Shown here piece after piece: positions 1,001 to 17,055 of a stretch of DNA of 32,000 bases. This stretch comes from Candidatus Baldrarchaeum yapensis (GTDB lineage Archaea > Asgardarchaeota > Baldrarchaeia > Baldrarchaeales > Baldrarchaeaceae): positions 24,981 through 56,980 of the forward strand of contig JAEOSH010000008.1 of the NCBI GenBank assembly GCA_016840465.1, read 5' to 3'. The notes below the pieces were generated by a model. The model saw nothing but the letters and a program-made list of their open reading frames with translations, ran no database searches and was not told where the DNA came from. The first letter of the stretch is position 1. Each line of letters begins with the position of its first letter. A program made the translations under genes and the position numbers.

Positions 1001-1816
1001 TTGAGCAGAAAAATCCCAACACCGGAGGAAGTTGCTAGGATAATCGACCACACGATTTTAAAGCCTTATGCGACTGCGAGAGACATAGATAGATACTGTG
1101 AGGAGGCAATAAAGTACGGATTTAACGCGGTTTTTGTTCATCCATGCTGGGTTAAATATTGTGTTGAGAGACTTAAGGGGACTGAAGTGAAGGTCGGGTC
1201 AGTAGTTGGCTTCCCACAGGGCGCAGAACTCCCCGAAGTTAAGGCATACTCTGCCGAGAAACTCGTATCGTTGGGAGTCCAAGAAATAGACATGGTCATG
1301 AACATAAGTGCGTTCAGAAATGGAGACTATGACCTGGTCAAAAAGGACATCGAGGGAGTGGTACGTGCAGCAGGAGACGTTCCCGTCAAAGTGATAATCG
1401 AGGTGGGATATCTTACCGATGAGGACATCATATATGCGTGCAAAATTGCCATGGAGGCTGGTGCGAGTTTTGTCAAGACAGCAACAGGGCTAGGACCTCT
1501 GGGAGCCTTTCCTCATCATGTGAGGATAATGAGGGAGACGGTCGGCAACAAGATGGGTGTAAAGGCGGCGGGTGGAATAAGGGACTTCAAAACTGCGGTA
1601 AGACTAATAATGGCCGGGGCGGATAGAATCGGCACAAGCACTGGTGTAGCAGTAATAGAAACAGCAAAGGACGCGAAATTCGATGAAGAAGAAGATCCAT
1701 GTTTGACATGCCCAAGTTACTATGCATCTAAAGACAAGATGCCGGAAGACGTCTATGAATATTACAAGTCGAAGTGCCTGAAATGCCCGCACGCTAAATA
1801 TGGAGGCAAGCACTAA
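1001..1816 (+). CDS. deoC: Deoxyribose-phosphate aldolase with a C-terminal Cys4 extension
   Basis: Motifs IDHTIL, VVGFPQG, EIDMV, VKVIIE, FVKTATG (Schiff-base Lys), VKAAGGIR, RIGTS. TTG start follows a G-rich RBS. Tail is CLTC-x21-CLKC. Confidence 0.93.
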   Translation: MSRKIPTPEEVARIIDHTILKPYATARDIDRYCEEAIKYGFNAVFVHPCWVKYCVERLKGTEVKVGSVVGFPQGAELPEVKAYSAEKLVSLGVQEIDMVMNISAFRNGDYDLVKKDIEGVVRAAGDVPVKVIIEVGYLTDEDIIYACKIAMEAGASFVKTATGLGPLGAFPHHVRIMRETVGNKMGVKAAGGIRDFKTAVRLIMAGADRIGTSTGVAVIETAKDAKFDEEEDPCLTCPSYYASKDKMPEDVYEYYKSKCLKCPHAKYGGKH

Positions 1817-4419
1817 ACATACGCCTCTTCGGCCGGTATTTCCTTTTCGTCTATTTTGCTTTTTACACCTCTTATTATTTTCTCGAGAACCTCGATGGCG
1901 CCATTCTTGAATAGCGGTTGATTATTATTACCACACTGATAAGAGTACGTGCAGTTAGGGCACCCGCTTATCGATTTACATTTACATTCCTTGAGAATCA
2001 TGAGAGACCTTCTAAATCCCTCTTCTAGTCTATCATATAGGAGTTTAGAGAGACCATTACCTCCAGGGCACGCGTCATGGACGAAGATAATTCCTGTGGT
2101 TCCAAGAGAGATGCCTCCGATTTCTCTACTTCCTCCACCTGTCAACATATTACTGCTTTCTATGAGAACGTGTTCAACAGCATGAAACGTACCTGCTATC
2201 AGATCCAGTTGTGATACCTCCGACGCTCCAAACCTTTCCACGGCATCTTCTATGGACTTCTCCGGGAACGGTGCCTGAAAGACAAAGCCCTTTGTCTCAT
2301 ATGTGTATTTAATTTCCTTATCCAGATCCTTTTGATCAACAGTCTCGCCCGTGAATATGTTTTTTACAACATAACCGTGGACCACATCAGTGACTCTTAA
2401 CTTACAGTAAATAACCGCAACTCCGAAAACGCTTTTTCTGTCATAAATGTCAAGAACCTCCGGTATTGAGTAATGTAATGCCTCCGTTTTCAAATTATTG
2501 AATTCAGGGAGCTTTCTGACGATAGCCCTCCCAACTCCTCCCCTGAATTCGAAAGAGATCGACTCGTACTGGTGTCCCCCGTGAAGATATATGGCACCGG
2601 GATGCAACTCTCGCGCGGCCATCGGCATTTCTCGTTCTCCCAGATATCTGCCACTCTCATCATATATCACAACAATATCACCCGTTCCCCTGATGTTATA
2701 CTCGGCCAATATCTTTTTCGCGATCCTCCAGTTTGGTACTAAGGTTCCATTTCTGGTCCTCACAAGTACTCCATCGTCTAACAACTTCATCTTCACATTC
2801 TCAAAGTTCGCAAACTCATCCTCACGCAGGGGCATATCCATTGCTGCTGCAAGTATTTGATAGTAGGCAACGACCTCGTTGTGCGGTTCCACGTATATCG
2901 GAGCTATATCGGTAAAGTAATCATCCGGATGTTGGCGATAGTAGGTACTTATCGGATCTCTATCTCTGAGTGCAAGAATGGCTATACTCTCTTGTCCTCT
3001 TCTTCCTGCTCGTCCGATTCTCTGTGTTAGTTTTGTAATGTCTGTGATCATGGATATCGTTGCGTCGACGAATCCTATATCTATTCCTAACTCGAGAGTC
3101 GGCGTCGCCACAAGTACATCGAGATCTCCTCTCTTGAATCCCCGTTCAACAGCCTCTCTAACTTCTTTTCTTAAACCCGCCCTGTGAACAGCGCTTTTTA
3201 TTCCCGCTCTCTTTGCCATAATGTTTATGACTTCTGCGTCCTTGTGCGTATTACCAAACACTAGAGTCTTCCTTTTTTCATCAACGAGAGCCCTTAATGC
3301 TCCGATTATCATCGCATAAACGGACCTATATGCAGGGTATAGCATCAAGAAGTGCATTCTTCCTCTTCGCGCTTTTTTACATACTATTTCACGCACGGGT
3401 ACTCCGAAAAGCGTCTCAGCAAATTCCTTTGCATTACTTATGGTTGCGGACGCGCCAATAAATTGAAGCCTTCCTCCACATAGTCTCTTTAGTCTCTGAA
3501 GAATAAAGTGAACGTTCGCGCCAAAAGCACCCGTATATACATGAAAATCATCTAACACAACAGTCTCGACCCTAGAAATGAGATGACGGAAGGACGGATC
3601 CTTTTTACGCATATGGTAATGAAGCATGTCAGGATTCGTAACTAAAATATCGGGAGGGGAGGAAAAAATTCTCCTCCTAACCTCAGGTGGGGTATCTCCA
3701 TCAAAAGCCTCAGCTCGAATGCCCACAGCCCCACATAATTCATGCAATCTATCCAATTGATCACGGGCGAGAGCCTTTGTCGGGTATATGAATATTGCTC
3801 TGACATGACGGCTAGGTGCCCTCTCCGGCGCCAATACACCCCATCTTGGAACATTTTTCGAAATTCTATCGATTATTGGAATAGCAAAAGCCTCAAACTT
3901 CCCCATGCCGGTCGGAGCAACTATCACAACGTTCTCTCCTTCTATTATCGCTTTTATCGCTTCCTCTTGATATTTATACAGTCTTTTAATACCTCTCTTC
4001 TTTAGCACATTCTTTAATTCGTCCGAGATGTTAAGATCATCGACGCTGCATCCAAATTCCGGCTCCTCCTCTCTAAATAATTTGTATCTAACCAGGTAAT
4101 CGCGTCCTTCTTTAATGATTTTTCTTACTGAAAGCGGGAGATCATCAAATGAAATTCCCTCTCTTTCTATCTCTTTCATTATGTCATCCAAGCTTCTCAC
4201 TAGTGAGCTATCCATCTTAGGCCTAATCTCCCCCCTCTCATAAGCCTCGATGAACGAGAAGTAAGCGTCTAACTCATCTTTAGTTCTAGGCGGGCAAACA
4301 TACCTTATTCTACATTCGTAACATCTAACTACGAAATGCGGCCCCTCACGTCTGACACGGAGTTTATCGCCACAGAAGGGGCAATGCACTCCATACACGG
4401 GATTCACCATGGCATTCAA
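1813..4419 (-). CDS. SF2 DEAD/DEAH helicase with DUF1998 (Hrq1/MrfA/SftH-like), N-terminal Zn ribbon and non-canonical Walker motifs
   Basis: Q motif LYKYQEEAI, APTGMGKF, YPTKALARDQ, TNPDML, VLDDFH, SAT, ATPTLELGIDIG, QRIGRAGR. C-terminal HAVEH..PGGNG..CKC..GCPNC. N-terminal CPFC..CYEC. Alternative ATG at 4410. Confidence 0.9.
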   Translation of the reverse strand: MNAMVNPVYGVHCPFCGDKLRVRREGPHFVVRCYECRIRYVCPPRTKDELDAYFSFIEAYERGEIRPKMDSSLVRSLDDIMKEIEREGISFDDLPLSVRKIIKEGRDYLVRYKLFREEEPEFGCSVDDLNISDELKNVLKKRGIKRLYKYQEEAIKAIIEGENVVIVAPTGMGKFEAFAIPIIDRISKNVPRWGVLAPERAPSRHVRAIFIYPTKALARDQLDRLHELCGAVGIRAEAFDGDTPPEVRRRIFSSPPDILVTNPDMLHYHMRKKDPSFRHLISRVETVVLDDFHVYTGAFGANVHFILQRLKRLCGGRLQFIGASATISNAKEFAETLFGVPVREIVCKKARRGRMHFLMLYPAYRSVYAMIIGALRALVDEKRKTLVFGNTHKDAEVINIMAKRAGIKSAVHRAGLRKEVREAVERGFKRGDLDVLVATPTLELGIDIGFVDATISMITDITKLTQRIGRAGRRGQESIAILALRDRDPISTYYRQHPDDYFTDIAPIYVEPHNEVVAYYQILAAAMDMPLREDEFANFENVKMKLLDDGVLVRTRNGTLVPNWRIAKKILAEYNIRGTGDIVVIYDESGRYLGEREMPMAARELHPGAIYLHGGHQYESISFEFRGGVGRAIVRKLPEFNNLKTEALHYSIPEVLDIYDRKSVFGVAVIYCKLRVTDVVHGYVVKNIFTGETVDQKDLDKEIKYTYETKGFVFQAPFPEKSIEDAVERFGASEVSQLDLIAGTFHAVEHVLIESSNMLTGGGSREIGGISLGTTGIIFVHDACPGGNGLSKLLYDRLEEGFRRSLMILKECKCKSISGCPNCTYSYQCGNNNQPLFKNGAIEVLEKIIRGVKSKIDEKEIPAEEAYV

Positions 4420-4492
4420 TTATCAATACTCTTAGGAACATCGTGCTTAAAAAAGAACTTTAATGGTATCACTGGATGAGGACACATAACTC

Positions 4493-5050
4493 CTACAACA
4501 TAGAACTCGGATTATGCTCTTCATGCTCATTAAATCTGTTAACCTTGTAAATTAACCTAAATGAGGAATATTGGAGAACGTTTTTTGGCTTAAAAACTTT
4601 GCAAACCTCATCCGGCTCGCAAAACCCCATTTTTCTCATATTATCGCATGTAAGTTTGTATGCCCCCATAACATCGTCTATGAGACATGCAGCAATGAGA
4701 TACGAGGCGACAACGGTAATTTTATTTTTGCGGAATGCAGCCCTTACACACGGTGGAGCACGTTCGAGATGCGCTCTTAAAGCGAGATTGCGGAGTTTGT
4801 CCATTAACAAACATTTTCCACGCTTTAACTTCCATATGCAATTCTTACAGATATTTTCTGGTAGAAGCTTGCATAGCTCACGTAATGCGGCGGTACTGAA
4901 ACCATCACCTCTTAACAAGTGATAATTTAGTTCCATAAAGTATATAGGATCAAAATGTCCCAGCTCATGCACTAAACTCTGAGCCTCTCGTACTATTGTA
5001 CTAATATCACATGCCCAGTACTTCATATATTGCTCATCGCCCGAGGACAT
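4493..5050 (-). CDS. Cys-rich protein resembling the primase large subunit (PriL) Fe-S C-terminal domain
   Basis: PPC-x33-C-x8-C-x5-C followed by KNVLQY, plus an upstream C-x7-C-x2-C-x8-C. Start moved to the ATG at 5050 to avoid a head-to-head overlap with the divergent gene. Confidence 0.65.
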   Translation of the reverse strand: MSSGDEQYMKYWACDISTIVREAQSLVHELGHFDPIYFMELNYHLLRGDGFSTAALRELCKLLPENICKNCIWKLKRGKCLLMDKLRNLALRAHLERAPPCVRAAFRKNKITVVASYLIAACLIDDVMGAYKLTCDNMRKMGFCEPDEVCKVFKPKNVLQYSSFRLIYKVNRFNEHEEHNPSSML

Positions 5051-9064: not shown

Positions 9065-10171
9065 GTGTTAACGATGGCCTTGGCATTTGAAAGCGGTGAG
9101 CGTCCAGAATCCCCAGAGATAGAGGAAAAACTTTGGAAGAAGGTGGAATTTGCTCTTAAAGAACTAAGGGAGTTCAGAGAGCCGACTGTTGATGACGTGT
9201 TTACCGTTAAACGATATTACTTGGGACCCGAGGATTTTAAAGTGACAAACTACATCAGATCTAGGCCCTTCTCCGCCTTTAACCCAGGTGTTCTCCTACG
9301 AGGAGATAGAATACTACTATTTCCTAGACTTGTCTTTGAATTTTACCTTTACTCCTCAAGTGTAGGATTATGCAAGATAAAAATGGAAGATGTGATTTCG
9401 GGCGAAATAAAAAAGCCTCTGGAAACGAAAATAATTCTATGGCCTAAATATCCTTGGGAGCAAATGGGATGCGAGGATCCACGGGTTTTCGAATCCGGCA
9501 ACAAAGTGTATATCTTGTACTGTGGCAAGGGCGTTTATAGAACCGCTGATGGAAAATCTGTCAATAACGACGCATTAGCCCTAGCCGTAATGGATGAGAA
9601 TTGGAATGTTGAGAGGCGAGGGTACTTCTACGTTAAAATGGGAGATCTTAAGCACGTTCCATCAAACAGAGATAGTGCAATAATAAAAATGCAGGGATAC
9701 AGCGCGAACATCGTAACTAGGCCTGTAATTAGGAAAGTAAAGGTGTGTTGGCGTGCAAAAATAAATGTAAATGATTTCTCCATGCCTGAAGACGAATTAA
9801 AGCCGGTATTCGCACCGGAACATTGGGAATCTCACGTGGGTTGGTCAACGAATTGTGTGAAACTTTCGAGAAACGAGTATCTCGTGGGGTGGCACGGAGT
9901 CTCAAGCACGGATCTTACATATAGAAATGGCCTCGCAATAGTTGATGAAAATGGAGATCTTCTGGCTATAAGTAATTACACCCTATCCCCTAAAGGACTT
10001 ATAGAGGAGTATGGAGACAGACCTTTTACAATGTTCGGAAACGGACTAATTGTGTATAAAGAATACTTAATATGGGTAGGAGGCATCGGTGACTGTTGTA
10101 TCGGGATATTTATAGCGGAACTCGAAAAAGCTTTAGAAAAGATGAAAGATGTTAAGAGACATTTGTCATGA
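9065..10171 (+). CDS. GH130-like glycosidase/phosphorylase (COG2152, five-bladed beta-propeller)
   Basis: AFNPGV, GCEDPRV, RDSAII, HVGWS, YLVGWHG, FGNG motifs. Confidence 0.8.
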   Translation: MLTMALAFESGERPESPEIEEKLWKKVEFALKELREFREPTVDDVFTVKRYYLGPEDFKVTNYIRSRPFSAFNPGVLLRGDRILLFPRLVFEFYLYSSSVGLCKIKMEDVISGEIKKPLETKIILWPKYPWEQMGCEDPRVFESGNKVYILYCGKGVYRTADGKSVNNDALALAVMDENWNVERRGYFYVKMGDLKHVPSNRDSAIIKMQGYSANIVTRPVIRKVKVCWRAKINVNDFSMPEDELKPVFAPEHWESHVGWSTNCVKLSRNEYLVGWHGVSSTDLTYRNGLAIVDENGDLLAISNYTLSPKGLIEEYGDRPFTMFGNGLIVYKEYLIWVGGIGDCCIGIFIAELEKALEKMKDVKRHLS

Positions 10172-10534
10172 TATTCTGAAAAAGAGCCATCTTCTTCCCT
10201 CTACTCTTCTTAATACATAGGTCCCACGAAGCCTTTCTCCATCCAGAAAGAACACTATGGTATTCTCTCCCCTTTTCTTTAGAACGTAAGTCCCACGATC
10301 CCATATCTCAACAGTTCCGGCACCGTAAAATCCATCCGGAATTTCTCCTTCAAAGTACAGATAGTCAATATCATGATCCTCAACCTCAATTGCTAACCTT
10401 TTCACACTGGTAACTGCTGGAGGCTCTTTACGTAAAACCCAACTCTTAAGTACGTCATCCATTTCTAAACGAAGATCCCAATGTAGGCCAGCCCGTTTTG
10501 CCAGATGCTTATGAATCACAAAGCGAAGCCTCAT
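10166..10534 (-). CDS. Stand-alone LigD-type DNA 3'-phosphoesterase (PE domain)
   Basis: FVIHKH.A...LHWDLRLE..VLKSW, KRLAIEVEDH, FEGEIP..YGAG.V.IWD.G.Y. Confidence 0.92.
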   Translation of the reverse strand: MRLRFVIHKHLAKRAGLHWDLRLEMDDVLKSWVLRKEPPAVTSVKRLAIEVEDHDIDYLYFEGEIPDGFYGAGTVEIWDRGTYVLKKRGENTIVFFLDGERLRGTYVLRRVEGRRWLFFRIS

Positions 10535-15873: not shown

Positions 15874-17055
15874 TTGTTCCCAAAAGTCTACTATGTAACA
15901 CCAAGGGCGGGTCCGGGATTCAGCCTTATCGAAAAACTGTATCTGCTTCTGGAAAAGTTGAATCTCGAAAGGAAAATAGGATCCGGCGATACGGTAGGAA
16001 TAAAAACGCATTTCGGAACTATCGGAAACACGCGATATCTTCGTCCAATATTTATAAGAGCAATTGTCGATTTTGTGAGAAAGTTGGGGGCTCAACCTTT
16101 AGTTATCGAAACGTGTGGCCATGGCCTTGGTAATCCTTTCTCTACAAGAACAACCGCGACCGGGCACCTAGAAGTCGCAAAAGCCAACGGCTTCTGTCCA
16201 GAAACACTAAATGCTCCTATAGTTATTCTAGACGGGCAATATGGCCTTGACTTCGAGCGTGTATCCTTTAACGGGAATTACATAAGAGAGGTATTCATAC
16301 CACGAGGTCTCAAAGGAATAGATATCGTAATCGTGGCAACACACTTCAAGGGACATGGAATTACGGGTTTCGGCGGTGCAATAAAGAATGTCGGTGTTGG
16401 ACTTATAGCGAAGCCCGGAAAGGGATTCCTGCACTTTCAGCGAAAATTGGAAGTAAAGTGGCGGCCTGACATTTGCCCTACCTGCCTAAAATGTGTTAAA
16501 ATATGTCCAAGTAATGCGCTTAGATTCTTAAACGAGAAAATACAGTTCGTCGAAGAAAAATGCCTGCTTTGCGGAATGTGCTGGTCAGCCGAGGTCTGCG
16601 AACACAGGCTAATAAGGCCAGTGTTGAGGGATGCATATAAAGTAACGCGAATGGTTGTGGAAAATGCCAAAGCAGTCATAGAGTGGCTTGGAAAGGACAA
16701 CTGGGTCTTTATAAACTTTGTACTCGATGTGACACCTGAGTGTGATTGCGTGCCATGGGCAGATCAGATCATAGTTCCCGATCAGGGAATTTTCGCTTCT
16801 TATGACCCGGTAGCGGTCGATTCGGCATCTTACGACTTTGTATCGGCAGCATCTATTATCAAGGACTCCGTACTCGGAAAATATGACGGTAAGATCACAC
16901 CTAGAGATGACAAATTCTCACTAGTAACAGGAGTGGACACCGCCAGAGTCCAACTTGAGTACGCGGAACAAATAGGGTTAGGACGTAGAACTTACCTGCT
17001 AGAATGGGTCTTGCCGGACGCAGAGGCAGAAGCCATAAGAAGAGGCGAACTTTAA
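15874..17055 (+). CDS. DUF362 family Fe-S protein with inserted ferredoxin
   Basis: KTHFG, THFKGH..GFGGAIKN.G.G, CPTCLKCVKICP, CLLCGMC...VC, DVTPECDC, ASYDPVAVD. Confidence 0.88.
   Translation: MFPKVYYVTPRAGPGFSLIEKLYLLLEKLNLERKIGSGDTVGIKTHFGTIGNTRYLRPIFIRAIVDFVRKLGAQPLVIETCGHGLGNPFSTRTTATGHLEVAKANGFCPETLNAPIVILDGQYGLDFERVSFNGNYIREVFIPRGLKGIDIVIVATHFKGHGITGFGGAIKNVGVGLIAKPGKGFLHFQRKLEVKWRPDICPTCLKCVKICPSNALRFLNEKIQFVEEKCLLCGMCWSAEVCEHRLIRPVLRDAYKVTRMVVENAKAVIEWLGKDNWVFINFVLDVTPECDCVPWADQIIVPDQGIFASYDPVAVDSASYDFVSAASIIKDSVLGKYDGKITPRDDKFSLVTGVDTARVQLEYAEQIGLGRRTYLLEWVLPDAEAEAIRRGEL

Follow-up and report, generated by a model that had tools for sequence, protein, structure and literature searches.

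The stretch of DNA analysed here, hereafter the window, covers 32,000 nucleotides (nt) of contig JAEOSH010000008.1 of Candidatus Baldrarchaeum yapensis (assembly GCA_016840465.1, positions 24,981 to 56,980 of the forward strand). It carries on the minus strand a small gene for a protein with eight cysteines, whose C-terminal half had been likened, from the letters alone, to the Fe-S domain of the large primase subunit PriL. The open reading frame (ORF) runs from 5155 to 4493 and encodes 220 amino acids (aa), with Met36 at position 5050 opening a product of 185 aa (P0002). The start at 5050 is likely because the public gene call gives the identical 185-aa product and the N-termini of the homologues, the closest of which (P0004) has 176 aa, align to Met36. 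By eye, a GGGG(A) stretch lies 10-14 nt upstream of the 5050 ATG, and an A/T-rich TTAAATGTTTA box, which may serve as the promoter of the gene, lies about 39 nt upstream of it. The ORF is a real gene for a two-module protein of 185 residues with eight cysteines, a putative metalloprotein, and its parts are as follows.

4493..5050, minus strand: coding sequence of the 185-aa protein, stop codon (4493-4495) included, with Met36 at 5050 as the likely start.
4883..5029, minus strand: N-terminal helical module, residues 8-56, with conserved W12, G31, F33, P35, F38 and L45 and a predicted local distance difference test (pLDDT) score of 83-94.
4811..4873, minus strand: first set of four cysteines (Cys4), C60 to C80, a knuckle or hairpin and putative metal site (Zn or Fe-S).
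4547..4759, minus strand: trimmed domain resembling the C-terminal domain (CTD) of PriL, residues 98-168, with PPC101, C135, C144, C150 and N-x-L-x-Y161, a putative [4Fe-4S] site and a basic surface.

The strings APPCVRAAF, VVASYLI, YKLTCDNMRKMGFCEPDEVCK and KNVLQY, on which the sequence-only reading had been built, are all found in the ORF translation. Both of its cysteine spacings are also present as given, and in the numbering of the 185-aa protein they read C60-x7-C68-x2-C71-x8-C80 for the first set and PPC101-x33-C135-x8-C144-x5-C150 for the second. The DNA occurs in six sequencing runs labelled as hydrothermal-vent, sediment or seawater metagenomes, each possibly the source sample, and the sequencing-run search listed no RNA run containing it.

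The protein is the founding member of a small Asgard-only family that is undescribed in the libraries and papers searched. An exhaustive search of 1.84 billion cluster representatives returned nine matches, seven of them true relatives of 88-184 aa; the remaining two (1771 and 1362 aa) were rejected as repetitive false positives. Six-frame searches of related genomes yielded full-length homologues at 27-37% identity, and across four Asgard families, with Jordarchaeia and Freyarchaeia among the members, homologues were found at 27-48% identity. Among 400 Asgard genomes, the family occurs, mostly in single copy, in 83 of the 86 genomes of family f7 (Thor-type) and in all genomes of families f8 (5/5) and f18 (6/6), and no member turned up among 135 genomes of f9 or among the remaining families sampled. 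The four genomes of the sister family f2, which are 82-91% complete, likewise gave none. In one Jordarchaeia genome the member (G010:C1:799256-799743) is broken into two pieces by in-frame stops (one TGA, one TAG and one TAA), possibly as a pseudogene or through an assembly error. Searches of general libraries returned little: PHROGs gave no match to the family, a PDB sequence search with the family profile gave chance-level matches to CcdA and Roquin only, and a word-indexed protein search returned the 185-aa protein itself and nothing else. No longer fused forms were found with the family alignment, a weak negative.

None of the eight cysteines varies among 8 sequences from four Asgard families, and in an alignment of 43 sequences dominated by f7 they are 98-100% conserved, with C60, C68, C71 and C80 each at 98% and C101, C135, C144 and C150 at 100%. 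Non-conservation of the cysteines, which the sequence-only reading had named as a way in which it could fail, is refuted by these figures, and the second cluster that it had proposed, C-x7-C-x2-C-x8-C, proves real and conserved in both alignments. Besides the cysteines, conservation of at least 90% in the 43 sequences is seen at about 15 positions, and W12, G31, F33, P35, F38, L45, P99, P100, A105, Y161 and R165 reach 98-100%.

The C-terminal module (module 2) resembles the Fe-S domain of PriL in several searches. With a 14-sequence family alignment as query, hhalign matched the full PriL of 23 relatives at 93.7% probability (P 2e-7) and the PriL CTD alone at 94.7% (P 6e-8). This match, 70 columns long, begins at PPC and takes in the N-x-L-x-Y helix; it has one gap of 34 residues and keeps the four cysteines in register, C101, C135, C144 and C150 aligning one-to-one with C254, C322, C331 and the fourth cysteine of PriL. 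Against PriL the score is 56.1; 150 column shuffles scored 14.1 +/- 2.5, with a maximum of 21.1, and the reversed query scored 16.0. Outside the cysteines, the family agrees with PriL in the PP before the first of them, in the G-x-C and P-D context and in the N-x-L-x-Y after the last. In a scan of 18,950 NCBIfam models, PriL was the only family matched by more than one member (NF002589 by two members, NF002588 and NF003051), at E-values of 0.009-0.18, and no model was reached at its curated threshold. Among the 13,031 ORFs of the genome, the ORF comes 5th with a hidden Markov model (HMM) of the PriL CTD, and PriL comes 3rd with the family HMM.

Fold comparisons were made with a domain model of module 2 (pLDDT 80.5, predicted template modelling score 0.67). 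A fold search of the ESM Atlas with this model gave three rows bearing PF04104, namely row 1, with proteins of 136 aa of which 17% carry PF04104 (template modelling (TM) score 0.48 by the query, 71 residues aligned, root-mean-square deviation 3.5), row 2, a PriS/PriL fusion cluster (TM 0.35), and row 6, canonical PriL (TM 0.43). A fold search of PDB representatives with module 2 also points to PriL. Two other Atlas searches, one by features and one with the poor model (pLDDT 0.40) that the Atlas itself supplies, were uninformative. The pattern first noticed in the sequence, a PriL C-terminus with its four cysteines in register and a first spacer shortened to 33 aa, is borne out by the hhalign, NCBIfam and fold searches; these supports for homology are concordant, each being modest alone. 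A lack of structural similarity to the PriL CTD, which had also been named as a possible refutation, was not what these searches gave. Module 2 (residues 98-168) is probably a diverged and minimised homologue of the PriL C-terminal Fe-S domain.

The 185-aa protein is extra to the canonical priL-priS pair and is not itself a PriL. The pair was found in the same genome, at the following locus.

L001:274-3367, plus strand, contig C79: replication cluster of a PCNA-like ORF (by eye), a PriL of 365 aa (PF04104) and a PriS of 414 aa (PF01896).

The canonical PriL thus lies between the PCNA-like ORF and PriS, whereas the small gene, on contig C42, has unrelated neighbours and no pairing with priS. 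Because this canonical priL lies elsewhere in the genome, the ORF is not a fragment of a sole priL, a doubt that had been attached to the first description. In the related-genome sample, a full-length homologue was found in eight further genomes, and every one of them has a PriL too.

Differences from PriL concern both halves of the protein. The PriL N-terminal domain is absent, as had been claimed at the outset: the alignment covers PriL residues 251-356 only, and residues 1-95 of the protein match nothing in PriL. From the second helix to the second cysteine the family is about 34 residues shorter than PriL; the absent segment carries PDF and RYQVEHI in PriL, and neither these motifs nor the LSHxxRF of the PriL CTD are kept in the family. 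The PriL CTD has its cluster between two helical subdomains, one larger and one smaller (PMC5862659), and the family appears to keep the cluster-holding core and to drop part of the larger helical subdomain. As in the PriL CTD, the helices of module 2 would hold a [4Fe-4S] cluster where they meet. The family also has a conserved basic surface (R97, R103, K108, K112, R139, K140, K151, R165, K169) and conserved aromatic positions in module 2 (106, 117, 141, 143, 149, 161). The basic face formed by R97, R103, K108, K112, R139, R165 and K169 would be expected to bind nucleic acid or a nucleotide 5'-triphosphate.

The N-terminal module (module 1) spans residues 8-80, a helical part followed by a conserved Cys4 knuckle of its own. 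The last spacer of this first Cys4 set (C60 to C80) varies between lineages from 3 to 8 residues, and the model shows short strands at residues 71-80, at lower confidence (pLDDT 64-69). Whole-model fold searches gave weak winged-helix-like matches to residues 1-76, together with unrelated folds. In family f13, ORFs of 105-114 aa consist of the N-terminal module and the Cys knuckle alone, without the PriL-like half.

L083:1500-1814, minus strand, genome G025 (f13): module-1-only ORF.
L084:1146-1487, plus strand, genome G035 (f13): module-1-only ORF.

These short ORFs carry module 1 only, and therefore the two modules also exist apart. In one f7 genome, the first ~50 residues of module 1 form the N-terminus of a helicase of superfamily 3 (SF3).

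L124:11758-13578 (= L085:1758-3578), plus strand, genome G321, contig C27: helicase of 606 aa with D5_N, DUF5906 and Pox_D5 domains.

The matches of module 1 to the f13 ORFs and to the D5-type helicase were obtained by hhalign at 96-97% (96.8% for the helicase N-terminus), and no primase domain was detected in the 606-aa protein. The helicase belongs to an integrated element. The tyrosine integrase of this element (L124:15812-16732) overlaps a tRNA-Ser (16587-16674), and a C5 methylase fragment and a DUF488 protein are present in it as well. When the first 90 residues of the D5-type helicase were used as query, no further fusions came up, a weak negative. The recurrence of module 1 on this helicase is the only independent hint of a tie to replication.

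The best explanation of the whole, to which a probability of roughly 55% is given, is a two-module protein with a PriL-CTD-derived putative Fe-S module that acts as an accessory in priming or replication. Its priming or replication role, taken by itself, is put forward tentatively, at somewhat less than even odds. Several results weigh against this explanation. Pfam gave no meaningful match for the ORF, nor any for 14 family members with E allowed up to 10, Foldseek against PDB with the full and domain models gave no match at E up to 0.001, the Z and TM values of the fold matches are all in the weak range, and the genome-wide reciprocal HMMER E-values (0.3-0.4) are non-significant. Most of the profile score comes from the cysteines, falling from 56 to 23.5 upon their masking, and with the 43-sequence alignment the hhalign match drops to 86% over 37 C-terminal columns only. 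With regard to function, D299, F300 and Y307 of PriL fall inside the segment deleted from the family, and H270 and R273, invariant or near-invariant in PriL of the relatives, align to the variable positions 113 and 116. No replication-gene neighbourhood (priS, priL or any other) is conserved across classes, and the fusion of module 1 to a helicase is a single case among the 400 genomes.

Part of these results bears on convergence, by which an unrelated small Cys8 protein binding zinc (or Fe-S) would mimic the PriL C-terminus by chance. Because the cysteines supply much of the PriL profile score, convergence on a Cys motif retains some probability, and the missing significant HMMER, Pfam and Foldseek matches, as well as the weakening of the PriL match in the deeper alignment, point in the same direction. 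However, four independent searches, three of them unbiased, agree on PriL (NCBIfam, ESM Atlas, PDB representatives and directed hhalign), the non-Cys features (PP, G-x-C, P-D and N-x-L-x-Y) agree with it too, and the Cys-masked score of 23.5 still lies above all 150 column shuffles. Chance mimicry is considered quite improbable.

The loss of the PriL initiation motifs, together with the missing genomic link to primase genes and the strongly basic nature of the domain, could instead mean that module 2 descends from the PriL CTD and has left priming. The protein would then be an Fe-S (and Zn) nucleic-acid-binding regulator or repair factor, with the cluster as a redox or iron sensor and module 1 as a winged-helix-like DNA reader. 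However, the winged-helix matches lie within the stated noise range of the tool, and no DNA-binding Pfam family was matched. In addition, module 1 was found fused to a single partner, which is a replicative SF3 helicase and not a regulator, and the occurrence of the gene as a single copy in nearly every f7 genome suits a core function better than a niche regulator. Such a departure from priming is regarded as somewhat unlikely.

Among known systems, the PriL CTD (PF04104; human p58C, yeast Pri2 CTD and archaeal PriL) gives the best profile and fold matches. It shares with the family an all-helical build, the Cys order PPC...C...C...C and the flanking motifs G-x-C and N/H-P-L-x-Y, and archaeal PriL has in addition the close spacing of the last three cysteines (C-x8-C-x5/6-C). 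Unlike PriL, the family has an unrelated N-terminal module with a second Cys4 set, and its gene does not stand beside priS. PriX of the Sulfolobales (PDB 5OF3; PMC5700102) is likewise a small, stand-alone relative of the PriL CTD that coexists with a full PriL, and it has a separate N-terminal part for docking, its residues 10-27 binding the PriL CTD (docking by the family is proposed). Where the second helix begins, both also have a basic patch, which reads RKR in PriX and takes up the R/K-rich positions 108-112 in the family, with Lys or Arg at only 35-74%. In contrast to the family with its putative Fe-S site, PriX has neither an Fe-S cluster nor Cys4 sets, forms a six-helix bundle related to the larger Fe-S_N subdomain, has an invariant NTP site of D70, R72 and R74, and is known from crenarchaea rather than Asgard archaea. 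No PriX chain appeared in the fold-match lists, which does not exclude a likeness; no direct PriX alignment was made.

More distant comparisons were found with PriCT-1, PriCT-2 and the helix-bundle domain of pRN1 (PMC5862659), which are helical, distant PriL-CTD relatives assisting archaeo-eukaryotic primases (AEP); PriCT-2 aligns with two of the four PriL cysteines (PMC5862659). Unlike the family, these domains are fused to mobile-element AEP domains and are without a complete Cys4 site. No Pfam match to PriCT was obtained in the 14 members, and fused forms were not found, which is weak evidence. The uncharacterised 136-aa proteins of archaea and tailed viruses in row 1 of the ESM Atlas search, the best fold match of module 2, are also short, stand-alone and PriL-CTD-like; they presumably differ in having no module 1, judged by length.

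The archaeal factor TFE-beta and its relative RPC34 (winged helix plus 4Fe-4S) were considered as well, being similar in small size, in an N-terminal helical or winged-helix-like part and in a C-terminal Cys4 domain; the weak winged-helix fold matches include TFIIE-beta and RPC34. Their Cys pattern differs, however, and no TFIIE or RPC34 model matched any of the 14 members. The genome also encodes a separate candidate.

L116:1483-1854, plus strand, contig C64: winged-helix protein of 123 aa with C-terminal CPCFTC...C...C (RNA_pol_Rpc34 at E 4.5e-4, below the cut-off).

This 123-aa protein is likely a TFE-beta-type factor, and with it in the genome and no TFIIE/RPC34 matches to the family, the TFE-beta identity of the 185-aa protein was rejected.

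The relatives of the PriL CTD, PriX along with PriCT-1 and PriCT-2, have been described almost solely alongside AEP primases (PMC5862659; PMC5700102). Under the favoured explanation of a priming or replication accessory, the 185-aa protein would act in a detached form, in the manner of PriX or the PriCT domains, with module 1 serving as the docking or DNA-binding part. A complex prediction of PriS, PriL and the 185-aa protein gave scores of 0.22, 0.52 and 0.00, which are under the mark and count neither way. A bolder proposal, judged unlikely, is that f7, Jordarchaeia, Freyarchaeia and the present lineage would run a three-part primase. In this proposal, the detached Fe-S paralogue of the PriL CTD would dock via module 1 onto PriSL or the replisome and there handle the initiating nucleotide or the primer 5'-end in place of PriSL, or adjust how these are handled, as an Fe-S-bearing functional analogue of crenarchaeal PriX. 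The D5-type helicase of the integrated element would carry a captured copy of the docking module, by which the element would recruit the primase of its host.

Downstream of the small gene, on the same strand, lies a helicase gene to which a functional link had been suggested by the sequence-only reading.

4420..4492, minus strand: gap of 73 nt separating the small gene from the helicase gene that follows it, with a T6 run at 4449-4454.
1816-4419, minus strand: helicase of 868 aa with DEAD, Helicase_C and MZB domains (MrfA-type) and an extra N-terminal Cys4 ribbon (CPFC...CYEC).

Motif II of this helicase reads LDDFHVY, as opposed to LDELHVY in the orthologue of the sister family, so that the DExH glutamate is Asp here; the sister-family orthologue is without the first ~80 residues. 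The T6 run could mark the end of the small gene's transcript or be an A/T box for the helicase. The same strand, the 73-nt gap and the helicase's own Cys4 modules (N-terminal ribbon and MZB domain) would fit a dedicated partner of the adjacent MrfA/MZB-type DEAD-box helicase, the two genes forming an Fe-S plus helicase repair module. However, nine other genomes that have the small gene or its N-module carry their best match to the helicase on another contig or at least ~1 Mb away. In the sister family the helicase adjoins a leucyl-tRNA-synthetase-like ORF (by eye), with no small gene. The T6 run and A/T boxes of the spacer would also be compatible with separate transcription. The suggested tandem link to the altered helicase did not hold, its adjacency not being conserved, and a dedicated helicase partnership is very improbable.

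Neighbours of the small gene differ elsewhere. In Jordarchaeia, an upstream ORF of ~460 aa resembles an FAD-dependent oxidoreductase (by eye), and purine-biosynthesis-like genes are found, whereas f7 has a putative repeat protein of ~337 aa and an actin-like ORF nearby. Two further genes of the window were noted. A DeoC/LacD-family aldolase (1001-1816, plus strand; Pfam E 3e-16) carries a C-terminal tail of ~45 residues with CLTC...CLKC, which looks like an appended zinc-ribbon-like motif. An ORF of 122 aa (10169-10534, minus strand), which begins MRLRFVIHKH...GLHWDLRLE, is by eye presumably similar to a stand-alone 3'-phosphoesterase domain of LigD.

With respect to novelty, two recent surveys of Asgard replication report a single-copy PriL, or only PriS and PriL, with PriX as specific to crenarchaea or Sulfolobus, and a stand-alone PriL-CTD paralogue is unmentioned in both (PMC12680538, PMC12770985). 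A full-text literature search for PriL-like or PriX-like proteins returned plasmid and mobile-element primases only. What is new is a stand-alone, Cys-complete and internally trimmed domain of the PriL-CTD/PriX/PriCT superfamily behind a new N-terminal module.

Primer synthesis without the primase [4Fe-4S] cluster has been shown (PMC5700102), and the role of the cluster is unsettled. With a natural domain that keeps only the core around the cluster and has no nucleotide and template motifs, that role could be studied apart from them. If the three-part primase were true, module 2, at ~75 residues, would be the smallest natural PriL-type Fe-S domain and a clean system for the disputed role of the cluster. 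If the protein has left priming, the PriL-CTD fold would be reusable outside primases, which has hardly been seen so far (PMC5862659). With an extra, conserved and near-universal Fe-S protein of the PriL type, three or four Asgard lineages would have one more part in their machinery for replication or genome maintenance, an addition that matters in Asgard archaea as the archaea closest to eukaryotes.
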